Of a stretch of DNA of 54,024 nt, positions 4,463-52,338 are shown in pieces (within the stretch, counting starts at the first letter, position 1; each line of letters begins with the position of its first letter). This DNA is from Pseudomonas phage PMG1. The position numbers and the translations under genes are program-made. The notes below the pieces were generated by a model, which had not been told where the DNA came from, did no database searches, and saw only the letters and a program-made list of their open reading frames with translations. The stretch is taken from the sequence record NC_016765.1; one strand, given 5' to 3'.

Positions 4463-5646
4463 GCGACTTCGAAAAACAAATCGGCGAACTGAACGCCAGC
4501 CTCAAGCAGGTCGGGGACCAAATCAAGTCCCAGGCCGAACAGGTAAACACCCAAATCGCCAATTTCGGCGAAATGAACAAGGAAACCCGCGCCAAGGTCG
4601 ACGAACTGCTGACTGCCCAGGGCGAACTGCAAGCACGACTGAGCGCCGCGGAACAAGCCATGCTGGCCAACGAGAAGCGTGACGGCGGCGAGGAAGCACC
4701 GAAGACCGCCGGCCAAATGGTCGCAGAGAGCCTGAAAGAGCAGGGTGTAACCAGCTCCCTGCGCGGCTCGCATCGCGTATCCATGCCGCGCTCGGCCATC
4801 ACCTCCATCGACGGCTCTGGCGGCGCCCTGGTGGCTCCTGATCGTCGCCCCGGTGTCGTTGCCGCTCCGCAGCGTCGACTGACCATCCGCGACCTGGTTG
4901 CGCCTGGCACCACTGAGTCGAACTCCGTCGAGTACGTCCGCGAGACCGGCTTCGTCAACAATGCCGCTCCTGTTTCGGAAGGCACCCAGAAGCCATACTC
5001 CGACCTGACCTTCGAACTGGAAAACGCGCCGGTTCGCACCATCGCACACCTGTTCAAGGCAAGTCGCCAGATCCTGGACGACGCTTCGGCCTTGCAGAGC
5101 TACATCGATGCGCGCGCTCGTTACGGCCTGATGCTGGTCGAAGAAGGTCAACTGCTCTACGGGAACGGGACCGGCGCCAATCTGCACGGCATCATTCCGC
5201 AGGCACAGGCCTACGCGCCGCCGAGTGGCGTAGTGGTAACCGCCGAGCAGCGAATCGACCGCATCCGCCTGGCGATCCTTCAGGCGCAACTGGCCGAGTT
5301 CCCGGCCAGCGGTATCGTGCTCAACCCCATCGACTGGGCGCTGATCGAGCTGACCAAGGACGCCGAGAACCGTTACATCATCGGCAGCCCGCAGAACGGC
5401 ACCACTCCGACCCTCTGGCGTCTGCCGGTGGTGGAAACCCAGGCCATCACTCAGGACGAGTTCCTGACCGGTGCGTTCTCTCTCGGCGCCCAGATCTTCG
5501 ACCGCATGGACATCGAGGTTCTGGTTTCCACCGAGAACGACAAGGACTTCGAGAACAACATGGTCACCATCCGCGCTGAGGAGCGGCTGGCCTTCGCGGT
5601 CTATCGCCCCGAGGCTTTCGTGACTGGTTCGCTGACCGCCAGCTAA
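4459..5646 (+). CDS. major capsid protein, HK97 fold with N-terminal coiled-coil delta domain
   Basis: 395 aa, strong SD AAGGAGA; coiled-coil N-terminus then HK97-like capsid body; followed by strong terminator. Confidence 0.85.
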   Translation: MSDFEKQIGELNASLKQVGDQIKSQAEQVNTQIANFGEMNKETRAKVDELLTAQGELQARLSAAEQAMLANEKRDGGEEAPKTAGQMVAESLKEQGVTSSLRGSHRVSMPRSAITSIDGSGGALVAPDRRPGVVAAPQRRLTIRDLVAPGTTESNSVEYVRETGFVNNAAPVSEGTQKPYSDLTFELENAPVRTIAHLFKASRQILDDASALQSYIDARARYGLMLVEEGQLLYGNGTGANLHGIIPQAQAYAPPSGVVVTAEQRIDRIRLAILQAQLAEFPASGIVLNPIDWALIELTKDAENRYIIGSPQNGTTPTLWRLPVVETQAITQDEFLTGAFSLGAQIFDRMDIEVLVSTENDKDFENNMVTIRAEERLAFAVYRPEAFVTGSLTAS

Positions 5647-40736: not shown

Positions 40737-41225
40737 CTACTGAAGGATGAGAATCTTGCGGACGGGGCGGACACGGAGGACGCACGTCTTGCTTAAGTCG
40801 TTCGTGTTGCCGTCGTGGAAGCCCGTGCCGAAGGCGCGGTTGGCGGAGTACTGCGAACTCGACCAGTACCAGCGATCCGAAAAACCGGGCAGCTCGCCTG
40901 CTTGTTTGGCGGAGAACAGAAGAGCCAGTTCCAGAGCAGAGGGAATGAATACGCCGGCTCCGATCTCCAAAGCCTGCTTGGCAATCGGGCTGCCAGCTTC
41001 AGCCATGGCGACCGTATTCGAGGCGCCGTCTCGGTAGCTGACGGCGCCGCCCACGTCCTGGCCGTATTCGCCCCATTCGCCAGTGAACTCTGCGCTATTG
41101 CCAAGATCGATGTAGGCGTATTCCTTGCCATTCAGCCAGTGGCGGGCAAAGAAGGTTCCATCGGCCAGGGGTTGGCCGATTTCAGGAAGTTCACTCGGGT
41201 GAATCGAATCGGGAATGGTGGTCAT
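40737..41225 (-). CDS. DUF1566 (Lcl C-terminal-like) domain protein
   Basis: LPGFSDRWYWSSSQYSANRAFGTGFHDG...VLRVRPVR matches DUF1566 consensus. Confidence 0.55.
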   Translation of the reverse strand: MTTIPDSIHPSELPEIGQPLADGTFFARHWLNGKEYAYIDLGNSAEFTGEWGEYGQDVGGAVSYRDGASNTVAMAEAGSPIAKQALEIGAGVFIPSALELALLFSAKQAGELPGFSDRWYWSSSQYSANRAFGTGFHDGNTNDLSKTCVLRVRPVRKILILQ

Positions 41226-41298
41226 GGCTGGTTTCCTTTTTAGGTTTGCCCTGGGTTGGGCGATAGGGCGCCCGGATGGGTAAATGGGTTGGAGCTGG

Positions 41299-41505
41299 TT
41301 ATGCCCCGCGAACCGGGGCGGTTGGATTTCCTCGATGCGCCTGTCTCCAAGCGCATCTGAGAAATCTTGGTGTTTCTCGCAAACCCTCACGCCGGTAGCC
41401 GGTGGTGAGCGCATTGCGCATTTCGTACCGTCCAACAGGTCTCACTTGCCTACCTCCGCAAACGATGCCCGATTGCAGAAGCGTTACTGGCGCCTGTTGG
41501 CTCAT
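41299..41505 (-). CDS. Arg-rich 68-aa ORF in early-left leader (speculative N-like)
   Basis: first ORF downstream of PL-like promoter; very basic; region also rich in RNA hairpins. Confidence 0.25.
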   Translation of the reverse strand: MSQQAPVTLLQSGIVCGGRQVRPVGRYEMRNALTTGYRREGLRETPRFLRCAWRQAHRGNPTAPVRGA

Positions 41506-41570
41506 ACCTGGTTGTTAAAGAGCGGTCGGCTCGGTGGCCTGGCGCTGCGTTGTTCTGCGGCGTTGAGGTG

Positions 41571-41599
41571 AGTATGAGATTGCTCATATTCGTTGTCAA
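41571..41599 (-). promoter_or_regulatory. PL-like early-left promoter with operator palindrome
   Basis: minus-strand TTGACA-17 nt-CATACT; perfect palindrome TATGAG-attg-CTCATA overlaps spacer/-10; adjacent AATGAGTTTCCCC related to OR repeats. Confidence 0.4.
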
Positions 41600-41630
41600 T
41601 GAGTTTCCCCATATTTTTTCTTGAGGACAT

Positions 41631-41655
41631 GAAAAAGCCCGCGCTAGGCGGGCTT
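41631..41655 (-). terminator. terminator after cI-operon membrane gene
   Basis: minus-strand AGCCCGC-ctagc-GCGGGCT followed by TTTTT. Confidence 0.55.
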
Positions 41656-41674
41656 ATGGCTCCTTTGGAAGGTT

Positions 41675-41944
41675 CTAGCTGCGGCGTCTTAGGGTGAATC
41701 TCCTAGCGGCCATGCCAAACAGGCAGAAAATGGCGCCTGCCGCTGATTTGGCCAGAAGGATAGTAGTAGGGTGCTGCTCCCAGGCAGGGATACTGCCTGA
41801 AAAGGCAAGCGTGATAGCAACATATACACACGCAGAAATCAGCACCGAGACTCTGTTACCTACGAAGAATCCGATAGCCGCGCAAAGAACGAACGCTAAG
41901 GGGTCAAGAAGGGAAGCTGCTAGGTAAGCGATGAACACAACCAA
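41675..41944 (-). CDS. small polytopic membrane protein co-transcribed downstream of cI
   Basis: 89 aa, ~3 TM helices, 10-nt gap after cI; occupies the position of lambda rex/sieB-type exclusion genes. Confidence 0.5.
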   Translation of the reverse strand: MVVFIAYLAASLLDPLAFVLCAAIGFFVGNRVSVLISACVYVAITLAFSGSIPAWEQHPTTILLAKSAAGAIFCLFGMAARRFTLRRRS

Positions 41945-41953
41945 AGTGACCTC

Positions 41954-42625
41954 CTACCCAATGCCGCCACCGCGCCATATGACGCGACCTATGATTGGAA
42001 GTTCATGAACTGAGCTTTCACTAGCCATCTCATCCGGATAAGCGGACTTATCTGGATTGTCGCTACGGATTAGCCACGCTCCTGTTAACTGCTGGTTAAG
42101 GCGCTTGATGCTCACGCCGCCATCCGGCCTCCGGATAACATAGACCTGCTTGTCCTGTGGGTCTGTCTTAGAGGTGTCAAAGAGGACCACATCTCCCTCG
42201 AATATGTAAGGCTCCATGCTGTCGCCATCGGCATAGATGACAAAGAGGTTTTCCGGCTTGGAGTTGACGCGCTTCAGCCAGTCCCGCTTGAAGACAAGGC
42301 CCTCGGTGGTCTCAACATGATCATTGAAATACCCGTCTCCGCACTCGCCGCGGGCAGTGTACTGAGGTATCAAGGCGTAGTCCTTTTCGCTCGGAGCTCC
42401 TGGAAGAGCCTCCTTATTGCTGTTCATTTCGCCGTGCCCAGCAGCAAGCCATAACGCACTCACCCCACAGGCGGACGCCAATTGAGCAATATAGGACGTT
42501 CCTTGAGATTTTCCCTGCTCAAGGTTGGAAATTGAGGTCTGATCCAGGCCGACTCTCTGAGCTAGTTGAGCCTGGGTTAGTTTGGCGTGCTTACGCGCGG
42601 CCTTGATGCGATCTTTGAGTTCCAT
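41954..42625 (-). CDS. cI: CI-like repressor (XRE-HTH plus S24 LexA-like peptidase)
   Basis: N-terminal HTH ([21 protein letters not shown]); C-terminal S24 (GDSM...KR) autocleavage domain; ATG 42625 has no SD, alternative TTG 42661. Confidence 0.8.
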
Positions 42626-42662
42626 CCGAAAATTATCATGGGCACTCCCATGTCCTTGCAAA

Positions 42663-42697
42663 TGAGTATTCCCTGCGTTACCGTATGAGTATTCCCA
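42663..42697. promoter_or_regulatory. OR operator: two direct 12-bp repeats ATGAGTATTCCC spaced 23 bp
   Basis: exact repeats at 42663-42674 and 42686-42697 in the cI-cro divergent region, directly upstream of cro SD. Confidence 0.45.
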
Positions 42698-42711
42698 TAA
42701 GGAGGGATGCT

Positions 42712-42933
42712 ATGACCACCATCTACAAAGAGCTCGTCGCCCATTTCGGGACTCAAGACGAGACCGCCGCGAAGCTCGGCGTTGACCAAAGCACTGTGTC
42801 TGGATGGGTCCGGGGAAAGCACGGGATGTCTCCTGTTGTTGCGAAGCGGGCTCAGGTTCTGACCGACGGGAAATTCAAGAAAGAGGACCTGTGTCCGGCT
42901 TTCCCGTGGGAAGTGCTGTCGGCGGTTGCCTGA
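42712..42933 (+). CDS. cro: Cro-like HTH regulator
   Basis: SD AAGGAGGG; 73 aa; HTH AAKLGVDQSTVSGWVRG. Confidence 0.6.
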   Translation: MTTIYKELVAHFGTQDETAAKLGVDQSTVSGWVRGKHGMSPVVAKRAQVLTDGKFKKEDLCPAFPWEVLSAVA

Positions 42934-48483: not shown

Positions 48484-49076
48484 CGCTTCCCGTCCGCAGT
48501 TCGAAGCCCAGGAAGTGCCAGAACCCAGCCTGCGGCAAAGAGTTCATCCCGCAGCGCCTTGGCCAGTGCGTGTGCTCTCCTGCCTGCGCCCTGGCCATCA
48601 AGGACAAACACTCCAAGCCGGCGCGGAAGGCAATCGCAGACCGCGAGAGGCGAGAGGTCAGGGTTCGGAAGGAGAAGTTGAAGAGTCGGTCGGATCACCT
48701 GCGCGAGGCTCAGCAGGCGTTCAACGAGTTCATTCGGTGGCGCGACCGCATCGCCGGTCACGCCTGCATCTCCAGCGGCCTGCCCCTGGATTGGTCTGGA
48801 AACCAGACGGATGCCGGGCACTACAGGTCGACCGGAGCCGCGCCGCATCTCCGCTTTAACGAGAACAACTGCCACGCCCAGCGGAAGCTGGATAACCGCT
48901 ATCTCTCCGGCAATGCAGTGGATTACCGGGTCGGCCTGATCGCTCGGATCGGTCTGGCCGCTGTCGAGGAGTTGGAGGCGGACAACTCCGTCCGCAAGTA
49001 CACCGTAGAAGACCTGAAGGCCATCAAGGCCCACTACCGCGCCAAGGTGCGCGAGCTGAAGAAGAGGATCGCCTAA
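48480..49076 (+). CDS. ninG: NinG/Rap-family recombination protein
   Basis: N-terminal CQNPACGKEF...CSPAC zinc cluster and basic tail as in lambda NinG. Confidence 0.65.
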   Translation: MTLPVRSSKPRKCQNPACGKEFIPQRLGQCVCSPACALAIKDKHSKPARKAIADRERREVRVRKEKLKSRSDHLREAQQAFNEFIRWRDRIAGHACISSGLPLDWSGNQTDAGHYRSTGAAPHLRFNENNCHAQRKLDNRYLSGNAVDYRVGLIARIGLAAVEELEADNSVRKYTVEDLKAIKAHYRAKVRELKKRIA

Positions 49077-49393
49077 TGCAAACCGCCATCTCGATCATTA
49101 TTAGCATGACGCTGAGCCTTTCCCTGCTGTCCGGCGTAGCGCAGCTGTCACAATTCGCCTTCTACGTCTGCGTCATCATGAACGTGCTGGCCTGGATAGG
49201 CGTGCTCTGCGGCATGGTCAAGGACGAAATCAGCCAGCGAATCCGCCGGACCTTCTGGATTCAACTCCTTCCCTCAATTTTTTACGTTTACGCGCTGATC
49301 TTCAGTGGGCATCCCGTGCTCGGCGCATCTGCCTTCATGGTGCAATTCCTGATCGTCGCCACCGCCTTCCGAAAGGAGGCGAAACCTGCATGA
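49076..49393 (+). CDS. membrane protein (3-4 TM), unknown
   Basis: ATGA-coupled to ninG; hydrophobic 105 aa. Confidence 0.45.
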   Translation: MQTAISIIISMTLSLSLLSGVAQLSQFAFYVCVIMNVLAWIGVLCGMVKDEISQRIRRTFWIQLLPSIFYVYALIFSGHPVLGASAFMVQFLIVATAFRKEAKPA

Positions 49394-51252: not shown

Positions 51253-51552
51253 CTAGAAGCCGAGGTAGGAGTCCAGCAGCGCGGGGTACTGGATCGGACC
51301 TTTCGTGGCCTTCTCTCGATTGGACACATCGATAACCACCATTATGTCTTTGGTTGCGTTGAACTCGCTGCCGGTGTACAGCTCAGAGCAAAGTCTTTGG
51401 GCTGTGTAGTCCAACTCGAAGCAATAGAAAGAGGTTGTCTCATCCCAGTGCTTGTAATTGGTTAACTCATTGATTTTCTTTTTAAAAGAACTATATCGAG
51501 ACTGGTAGGTATCATCGGCCTTGATTTGAAACGTGACAATGAAGTTTGCCAT
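51253..51552 (-). CDS. hypothetical protein (99 aa), AT-rich antisense moron
   Basis: only minus-strand gene in a plus-strand block; ~47% GC; product MANFIVTFQIKADDTYQSRYSSFKKKINEL... Confidence 0.5.
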   Translation of the reverse strand: MANFIVTFQIKADDTYQSRYSSFKKKINELTNYKHWDETTSFYCFELDYTAQRLCSELYTGSEFNATKDIMVVIDVSNREKATKGPIQYPALLDSYLGF

Positions 51553-51605
51553 GGGTCCGTCCTGTTTCGTGGTGTAGGAATCGCGAGGATAGCACGGGGC
51601 CATCC

Positions 51606-51632
51606 CCGCCCTTCGGCGGGTTTTTCTTCGTG
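51606..51632 (+). terminator. plus-strand rho-independent terminator
   Basis: CCCGCC-cttc-GGCGGG followed by TTTTTCTTCG. Confidence 0.5.
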
Positions 51633-51692
51633 AGAGCCACACTACAAGGCCCAGGCAATGACCTGGGCTTTCTGCATCTGGAGTACGTGAAT

Positions 51693-52061
51693 ATGGCCGA
51701 GCCGAGTGGTGCGGTAGCAGTCGCCGGCTTGGTCGGTATTGGTGCGTCTGCGTTGATCCCTGGCATTGATGCCAATGCAGTGATCGGGTCTTTTGCTGGG
51801 GCTATCTTCTTCGTGGTGTATGCCAAGGACATCTCGGCCTGGGCTCGCCTTGGTTACTTCGCTGCGTCCTGGATCGTTGGCTACTACGTCGCCGGCGAAT
51901 TCATCGGGCGGGAGTGGGCAAGAACATCGGGCCTGGTCGCCTTTGGTGGGGCATTGTTCTGCGTCGCAGTGGGCACCAGCTTGCTGGAGTGGGTGCAGGG
52001 GGGGAAGACGCCTGGTTGGCTCCGCTTCATAGCGGACCGCTTTGGAGGTCGTAATGGTTGA
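51693..52061 (+). CDS. putative holin (3 TM)
   Basis: 122 aa, three TM helices, charged C-terminus; first gene after terminator in late block. Confidence 0.5.
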   Translation: MAEPSGAVAVAGLVGIGASALIPGIDANAVIGSFAGAIFFVVYAKDISAWARLGYFAASWIVGYYVAGEFIGREWARTSGLVAFGGALFCVAVGTSLLEWVQGGKTPGWLRFIADRFGGRNG

Positions 52062-52338
52062 CCCTTGGACTCTGGTGGCTGCGATGATTTGCGGCGCTAT
52101 CTGCATGCGGCTGGCGACATACCGCCGGCAAGGCGCGAGGTATCGCCGGGGAGTGTCTTGGCTCGCATACCTGCTGTGCGTTGGTAGTGGGTGTTTTGCC
52201 CTGAGCGTGATGCTCGATGCACTCCACGGCTACAGACTGAATCCTGTCTCCCCTTGGCTGACCCTGGTCCTGGCAATCCTGCTCGGCCTTGTGTGTCGTG
52301 CGCGGGGGAATCTTGCCCACATTCTGAGGGTGTACTGA
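52054..52338 (+). CDS. membrane protein (possible second holin/antiholin)
   Basis: SD GGAGG; 94 aa, 2-3 TM, dual-Met-like N-terminus. Confidence 0.45.
   Translation: MVDPWTLVAAMICGAICMRLATYRRQGARYRRGVSWLAYLLCVGSGCFALSVMLDALHGYRLNPVSPWLTLVLAILLGLVCRARGNLAHILRVY

Follow-up and report, generated by a model that had tools for sequence, protein, structure and literature searches.

What does a temperate phage gain from a small membrane protein encoded directly behind its repressor gene? The question is raised by a locus in Pseudomonas phage PMG1 (NC_016765.1; 54,024 nucleotides (nt), the whole of which is hereafter called the window), in which an open reading frame (ORF) of 89 amino acids (aa), here termed ORF89, lies between the repressor gene cI and a transcription terminator. 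A preliminary description of positions 41,631 to 41,944, made from the sequence alone, had proposed a membrane protein that is co-transcribed with cI and is a candidate superinfection-exclusion or abortive-infection factor. The reading at which we arrive, and which we hold tentatively as possible rather than probable, is that ORF89 would be a lysogen-expressed inner-membrane protein that confers narrow-spectrum superinfection exclusion at the DNA-entry step, an assignment based on analogy with known systems. At present, ORF89 is a rare uncharacterised accessory gene in a familiar arrangement.

The 3.1-kb stretch around ORF89 is 100% identical to Pseudomonas phage phi_D3 (PP944329.1) and 99.8% identical to the reference D3 record (AF165214.2/NC_002484.2), in which cI, three operators, cro, cII and the CII-dependent promoter pE are annotated at positions exactly matching the window. 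Judged by this agreement, the window is Pseudomonas aeruginosa phage D3, a reference temperate phage of that species. ORF89 itself is unannotated in AF165214.2. A comparison of that record with the window revealed two compensating 1-nt indels within codons 3-13 of ORF89 (window 41900-41940), and the gene is missing from the annotation because these differences in the older sequence disrupt the frame near the start.

The gene and its translation signal were located as follows.

41675 to 41944, minus strand: ORF89, 89 aa, three predicted membrane helices, distal gene of the cI operon; TTG start, TAG stop at 41677-41675.
41950 to 41955, minus strand: ribosome-binding site of ORF89, AGGAGG, read from the sequence; it shares bases with the cI stop, and the TTG follows 5 nt downstream.

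Nine intergenic bases separate the TAG stop of cI (41956-41954) from ORF89, so that the TTG at 41944 is the 10th base past the stop, and the polytopic membrane ORF of 89 aa that had been described as starting 10 nt after cI is thus confirmed. An alternative in-frame GTG at 41938, two codons downstream, is used as the start in PP944329.1; because this codon reads GTA in the prophage L011, the TTG is the better start. Both the TTG and the ribosome-binding site are kept in all nine independent DNA copies compared and in nine further copies from IMG/VR, and the ribosome-binding site reads TAGGAG(G/A)TC across the P. aeruginosa copies, with the exception of L008, in which an insertion sequence (IS) replaces it. 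The initiation signal of ORF89 is therefore a strong ribosome-binding site combined with a weak TTG start.

ORF89 matches phrog_28098, a family listed in PHROGs with function unknown, over positions 1-89 of 89 with E = 1e-55. Pairwise ratios of nonsynonymous to synonymous substitution rates (dN/dS), calculated only for pairs of copies with at least 17 nucleotide differences, range from 0.27 to 0.66. Because of this full-length match and these ratios, together with homologues that are 73-99% identical and remote homologues that share its motifs, ORF89 is taken to be a genuine coding sequence under purifying selection rather than a chance ORF. Its G+C content at third codon positions (0.556) resembles that of cI (0.603) and is lower than that of the early genes cro (0.69), cII (0.80) and orf68 (0.71). 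An antisense ORF of 77 aa (41694-41927, plus strand) was considered and set aside.

The signals that surround the gene in the immunity region, listed in the order in which a transcript of the minus strand would meet them, are given below.

42638 to 42698, no strand assigned: OR region with three 14-bp operators (42638-42651, about 42662-42675 and 42685-42698); operators annotated in AF165214.2 and supported by pattern matches.
42632 to 42661, minus strand: pRM-like promoter, TTGCAA, 18-nt spacer, GATAAT; 9 of 12 consensus positions, assigned by analogy with lambda pRM.
41954 to 42625, minus strand: cI repressor, 223 aa, with HTH_3 and Peptidase_S24 domains and a match to phrog_4; annotated as cI in AF165214.2.
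41630 to 41655, minus strand: predicted intrinsic terminator of the cI-ORF89 operon, AAGCCCGC-CTAGC-GCGGGCTT followed by TTTTT; 8-bp stem with six G-C pairs at 41655-41635.
41571 to 41612, minus strand: pL-like promoter, TTGACA, 17-nt spacer, CATACT, with two OL operator-like 14-mers; 10 of 12 consensus positions.
41512 to 41524, minus strand: exact boxA 13-mer, CGCTCTTTAACAA, nutL-like, in the early-left leader; the sole exact match in the window.

Between cI and ORF89, neither a promoter nor a terminator is predicted. The possibility that the 40-50 conserved nt ahead of ORF89 harbour an internal promoter was considered and rejected, as none is predicted there and these bases are left over from the 3′ end of cI. 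Lacking a predicted promoter of its own, ORF89 would be transcribed together with cI, and the straightforward reading is a single transcription unit served by both pRM and pE. The co-transcription that had been proposed earlier is thus supported by the 9-nt gap, the absence of predicted signals between the two genes and the terminator downstream. On this arrangement, pRM would drive ORF89 along with cI in every lysogen and the CII-dependent pE would do so during establishment, and the ORF89 product is probably made in every lysogen. We note that the -10 element of the pRM-like promoter (GATAAT, 42637-42632) ends 6 nt before the cI ATG, with no ribosome-binding site there, which implies that the cI mRNA may be leaderless, as in lambda.

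The terminator described earlier after the ORF was likewise found, as an 8-bp G+C-rich hairpin followed by TTTTT. It begins 19 nt past the ORF89 stop and dominates the fold (−18.5 kcal/mol; z = −1.8 vs. shuffled sequences). Both this terminator and the pL-like promoter are conserved in PP9W2, JBD44 and L011, and because JBD44 has no ORF89, the terminator is assigned to the phage backbone and not to the insert. Beyond it, the two OL-like 14-mers (41599-41612 and 41574-41587) overlap the pL-like promoter (41599-41571) and match the OR operators, and the boxA lies about 45 nt downstream of that promoter. Judged by these motifs, the pL-like promoter, the two operators and the boxA together constitute pL/OL with a nutL-like site. 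The order of elements in D3, i.e., OR/pRM, cI, ORF89, terminator and pL/OL, is that of cI-rexA-rexB-OL in lambda, so the earlier placement of ORF89 in a rexAB-like slot, between cI and pL/OL, holds. In contrast, the likening of the same position to a sieB slot does not, since in lambda and P22 the sieB gene is found on the other strand, past N/24. The boxA suggests antitermination of the N or boxA type in D3, in whose annotation no N analogue is given, and an Arg-rich ORF of 68 aa (41299-41505, minus strand) follows the boxA within the leader of about 340 nt that precedes orf68.

Comparison with related phages showed that ORF89 is not a fixed part of this operon. In JBD44, a D3-type cI is accompanied by the same terminator and pL/OL but by no ORF89, and the alignment jumps from the cI end to a point just before the terminator. 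Against D3, PP9W2 and L011, the homology of JBD44 breaks off at the cI stop codon and is taken up again ahead of the shared terminator. The cI protein of JBD44 is 100% identical to that of the prophage L011, and only L011 carries ORF89; F10 and VB_EV13 are likewise without the gene. To judge from these alignments, ORF89 is optional cargo between the D3 cI and the operon terminator. Measured against the definition of a moron developed for the lambdoid phages HK97 and HK022, ORF89 shows the presence or absence with sharp boundaries. However, it does not form an autonomous transcription unit, as no promoter is predicted upstream and its terminator is also present in JBD44; it uses the signals of the cI operon instead.

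Close homologues of ORF89 form seven clusters among 5.8 billion proteins, 73-99% identical and all from P. aeruginosa, and a tblastn search of 50,697 phage records matched six records, from Pseudomonas only. By these searches, the ORF89 family is a tiny, Pseudomonas-only orphan. Its placement is recurrent: a family member is the final gene downstream of an S24 repressor in 9 of 9 IMG/VR viral contigs and in most of the prophages examined. The S24 repressors that precede it number at least six, namely the D3 type and proteins of 287, 283, 273, 222 and 270 aa, with mutual identities of 19-51%. The D3-type repressor is found in D3, PP9W2, L010-L013, L019 and L040-L042; a 283-aa or 287-aa repressor, followed by a 216-aa BRCT-like protein, in L006, L014-L016, L018 and L043-L048; the 273-aa repressor in L035-L037; and the 222-aa repressor in L038. 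Among the repressors of these four contexts, identity is just 19-35%. In the non-D3 contexts, 20-50 nt of a decayed D3-type cI 3′ end (…IGKVIWHGDGY and the stop) are retained directly upstream of the gene, which shows that the cassette was picked up from the immunity region of a D3-like phage and spread thereafter. The recurrent position at the end of repressor operons supports recurrent selection for expression in lysogens, and the comparative context as a whole favours a lysogen-expressed accessory role.

These distributions bear on an expectation of the preliminary description, which had counted variability of the gene without linkage to immunity specificity as a sign against exclusion. Such unlinked variability is what was found, both in the pair JBD44 and L011, with identical cI proteins, and in the at least six unrelated repressors; yet the idea of exclusion itself stands, because this pattern is normal for accessory exclusion genes.

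Several contexts depart from the simple order. In phage Lodos (L026), the genes run integrase, BamE-like gene, 216-aa gene, ORF, P63C. In L008 (4699-5001), an IS of the transposase_mut family lies 11 nt upstream of the ORF89 TTG and has removed the ribosome-binding site; this copy of ORF89 is identical to those of L004 and L006. The L004 type is a rearranged island in which just the 3′ end of the 216-aa gene is left upstream. The 216-aa protein that precedes ORF89 (L014, 4250-4900; L006, 4251-4901; L026, 1691-2344; and L043-L048) is annotated as BRCT-domain-containing and belongs to phrog_3989, and it matches the PADLOC defence candidate PDC-S48 weakly (2e-6). The order repressor, 216-aa protein, ORF89 recalls cI-rexA-rexB, with the relic of the D3-type cI separating the latter two genes.

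When 1.84 billion representative proteins were searched exhaustively with the profile, only two further relatives were added, and a profile search that included these two brought in another four, each belonging to the P. putida group or to a metagenome; a scan limited to one genome per species returned no relative. The remote homologues, which come from other Pseudomonas species, are 31-42% identical to ORF89, have the same length and topology, and share the motifs ASLLDP...C...G and AGA; hhalign backs the relationship at 97% probability. Their genomic positions differ. P0008 lies behind an S24 repressor diverging from cro, as gene number seven on the same strand; in Ab31-like podovirus prophages, P0009 and P0010 are found between an 855-aa internal-virion protein (phrog_684) and the tail fibre; and P0012 follows a tyrosine recombinase (integrase). 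All of these are positions that cargo and exclusion genes of prophages classically occupy. A member of 87 aa is present in Ab31-related prophages of the P. putida group (L024 and L032, at 5001-5264), and Ab31 itself (L027, 5565-5629) has a 63-nt gap at the same position, from which the gene is absent; the family thereby has a second, independent case of presence/absence polymorphism.

The hydropathy profile of the ORF89 product, with a grand average of 1.15, shows hydrophobic segments at residues 2-28, 33-50 and 61-79, followed by a basic C-terminal tail, ARRFTLRRRS, with five Arg. Two AlphaFold runs (8 and 14 sequences) returned three helices at low confidence, with predicted local distance difference test values of 60-65. 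The positive-inside rule suggests that the N-terminus is outside and the C-terminus inside, and the product would thus be placed in the inner membrane as three helices with its basic tail in the cytoplasm. A signal peptide or lipoprotein was considered and rejected on inspection, as the N-terminus is without a basic region and no lipobox precedes Cys21. Positions F4, A6, A10, S11, L12, L13, D14, C21, G25, P53, A69, G70, A71 and G77 are invariant across the family, and a Lys or Arg is conserved four residues ahead of the AGA motif. Asp14, which is invariant and lies in helix 1, is probably paired inside the membrane with the conserved Lys/Arg of helix 3, and it is plausible that this buried pair, together with the small-residue packing faces, forms the core of the family.

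The preliminary description had seen no obvious similarity between ORF89 and the products of rexAB or sieB, and profile comparisons agree: hhalign gave probabilities of 0.4% against lambda RexB (alignment A3), 0.2% against P22 SieA and 0.1% against P22 SieB, i.e., 0.4% at most, and inspection showed the cytoplasmic FxRYPxEAxxFNK motif of SieA to be absent from the 89 aa. The sole PHROG match is phrog_28098. Among the 5027 PADLOC models, ORF89 matched none at E ≤ 1, and P0008 and P0009 matched none at E ≤ 0.01. Scans of Pfam and NCBIfam gave nothing meaningful, the best scores being compositional (PTS_EIIC, E = 0.087; SpoIIM, E = 0.08), and a Foldseek search of a viral library with the low-confidence model gave no match better than E = 2. 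By these comparisons, ORF89 falls outside every characterised family, and its likeness to known systems is one of position and predicted topology.

The closest models for the proposed function are P22 SieA, HK97 gp15 and Tuc2009 Sie2009, by analogy with which ORF89 would disturb the conduit, or a host membrane component, through which incoming phages deliver their DNA. SieA, a protein of the inner membrane, is necessary and sufficient to block DNA injection, with only P22 relatives affected, and in P22 it comes on top of repressor immunity and O-antigen conversion (PMC10883804). D3 has these two other layers as well. SieA and ORF89 share expression from the prophage (predicted for ORF89), three predicted membrane helices, the absence of a signal peptide and the status of an optional gene; moreover, P22 sieA directly follows the ejection-protein gene 16, to which the slot of P0009 and P0010, with ejection-protein genes and then a tail spike or fibre, is the counterpart. 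However, SieA, of which there are three sequence types, has 162-164 aa, about twice the length of ORF89, and sieA has its own promoter, whereas ORF89 lies in the cI operon. Sie2009 is encoded in the lysogeny module near the repressor. HK97 gp15 and Sie2009 block DNA entry of related long-tailed phages (summarised in PMC10883804). Like ORF89, both are small, prophage-expressed membrane proteins that are optional inserts in temperate siphoviruses, but tblastn against the 50,697 phage records detected no sequence relation between them and ORF89, and HK97 gp15, unlike ORF89, is a classic moron that lies near the tail genes and has a promoter to itself.

The phenotype of D3 lysogens limits what ORF89 could do. 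The PAO1(D3) lysogen blocks D3, LUZ7 and PEV2 only, leaving Pbunaviruses, Ab03 and pilus- and flagellum-dependent phages unaffected (2026 preprint, PMC13307970). Because so few phages are blocked, broad heteroimmune exclusion or abortive infection is unlikely, and the narrow spectrum is consistent with a homotypic block rather than a broad one. In a D3 lysogen, cI immunity together with O-antigen conversion would largely mask exclusion by ORF89. Should ORF89 block DNA entry, the protection conferred by D3 would be three-layered like that of P22, with repressor immunity, O-antigen conversion and an injection block at the inner membrane. It would also offer a handle on the inner-membrane DNA-delivery step of Pseudomonas siphophages and bear on the prediction of prophage-mediated resistance in phage therapy.

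Several points weigh against exclusion at DNA entry. The exclusion of D3, LUZ7 and PEV2 was ascribed to the O-antigen change, with no extra factor needed (PMC13307970), and a 2024 review of exclusion mechanisms gives Oac alone for D3 (PMC11436027); a literature search turned up no paper on this ORF. The searches described above found no sequence or profile similarity to characterised exclusion proteins, and the structural model is of low confidence, with no significant match in the fold search. In the commonest context of the variant P0002 (the L004 type, about 16 of the 24 contigs read), the gene has no repressor directly upstream, and dN/dS values of 0.3-0.6 indicate only moderate constraint. 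The case is an argument from position and topology, both of which are also found in proteins of other function.

The alternative that survives best, although we consider it unlikely, is lysogenic conversion apart from defence, in which ORF89 would bind and modulate machinery of the host's inner membrane, e.g., a transporter, sensor kinase or component of envelope or pilus assembly, altering host physiology or surface. An accessory protein that is predicted to be expressed in lysogens and embedded in the membrane would suit such a role, and its small-residue packing motifs (AGA, G25 and G77) and buried Asp are typical of helix-helix binders. Small prophage proteins that act on membrane machines are also known in P. 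aeruginosa, e.g., PfsE and Zip. The occurrence of the family in non-immunity contexts, beside an integrase and in a ParA-bearing element, would accord with this as well; however, the end of a repressor operon and the sieA-like position are slots enriched for exclusion genes, and the sequence names no candidate target. Inhibition of the type IV pilus or the flagellum in particular is opposed by the observation that phages dependent on these structures are unaffected by the D3 lysogen (PMC13307970).

Abortive infection, which we regard as distinctly improbable, would make ORF89 a RexB- or holin-like effector that is kept at a low level, depolarises or permeabilises the inner membrane on infection, and kills the cell before progeny are released, either alone or with a cytoplasmic sensor such as the 216-aa BRCT-like protein of other prophages. 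The likeness to Rex, whose phenotype is membrane depolarisation on infection, is one of position and predicted topology: lambda RexB is likewise a polytopic inner-membrane protein encoded after cI on the pRM transcript, with a terminator just before pL/OL. RexB has four membrane helices. It is also longer than ORF89, with 144 aa vs. 89 aa and three predicted helices. The conserved weak TTG start, as for a potentially toxic product, and the order repressor, 216-aa protein (PDC-S48, 2e-6), ORF89 in many prophages point in the same direction. However, whereas lambda Rex includes RexA, no RexA-like partner adjoins ORF89 in D3, where the gene is bounded by the 9-nt gap to cI and directly by the terminator, and in the other prophages about 50 nt of the D3-type cI 3′-end relic lie between the 216-aa gene and ORF89, which shows that the pairing is secondary. 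Furthermore, pilus- and flagellum-dependent phages, Pbunaviruses and Ab03 plate normally on D3 lysogens (PMC13307970).

The holin side of this comparison rests on class I holins of the lambda S type, which resemble ORF89 in size and predicted topology, with three helices, N-out/C-in, and a highly basic C-terminal tail. However, class I holins are expressed from late operons, whereas ORF89 is in a lysogenic operon, and ORF89 is unlike RexB, the D3 holins or any Pfam holin family. D3's own holins, Phage_holin_8 (51546-52061, plus strand) and Phage_holin_3_7 (52042-52338, plus strand), overlap in a lysis cassette (51.5-52.3 kb) and have no relation to ORF89. ORF89 as a holin proper was thus rejected, homology being absent and the D3 holins lying elsewhere.

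There is also a slim chance that ORF89 belongs to something new, by analogy either the membrane effector of an undescribed Rex-like module or the founder of a new family of DNA-entry blockers for Pseudomonas tailed phages. In the former version, it would be a portable depolarising or exclusion effector, acting alone in D3 and coupled elsewhere to a DNA-end or phosphoprotein sensor, i.e., the 216-aa BRCT-like protein. In the latter, the membrane-embedded Asp14 and the helix 3 Lys/Arg would be the functional core.

A role in lysogeny control, in which ORF89 would modulate a membrane-bound step of the circuit, e.g., turnover of the D3 CII homologue by FtsH, or the induction threshold, is very unlikely. 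The predicted co-transcription with cI from establishment and maintenance promoters, with pE annotated in D3, would be appropriate for it, and D3 possesses a lambda-type CII (PF05269). Lambda CII is degraded by the membrane protease FtsH. However, identical or near-identical cI/cro/cII modules occur without the gene in JBD44 (identical cI) and F10, and the gene also occurs behind unrelated repressors and in tail-gene and integrase slots. Finally, the view that ORF89 is non-functional or decaying, and a mere passenger of the immunity region, can be all but dismissed: the very narrow family (seven close clusters in 5.8 billion proteins), its frequent loss and its absence from the reference D3 annotation would be expected of such an ORF, but every copy examined is intact, with start and ribosome-binding site conserved and dN/dS < 1, the remote homologues (31-42% identity) retain length, topology and motifs, and the missing annotation is explained by the two compensating 1-nt differences in AF165214.2.

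Exclusion at DNA entry thus remains our preferred, if tentative, reading of ORF89, and a few further observations concern its neighbours and the D3 records. An ORF of 42 aa (41502-41630, minus strand), which begins directly after the terminator and is given as a coding sequence in PP9W2 and phi_D3, is probably spurious, as it spans the -35 and -10 elements of pL and both OL operators and has no PHROG or Pfam match. An Rfam scan of 41100-42800 placed Trp_leader over the terminator hairpin with 22.7 bits vs. a gathering score of 41, which was taken as a chance match. A separate ORF of 105 aa at 49076-49393 (plus strand) also has three predicted membrane helices, with no family assignment. Among the D3 records, AF165214.2 has one extra C relative to the window in the middle OR operator (about 42668), the coordinates of orf68 disagree, and the repressor coding sequence of PP944329.1, at 984 nt, looks over-extended. 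The header of PP944329.1 places phi_D3 in Mesyanzhinovviridae/Rabinowitzvirinae/Yuavirus, whereas its sequence is 99.8% identical to D3 (Detrevirus), and this taxonomy line is probably a database mislabel.

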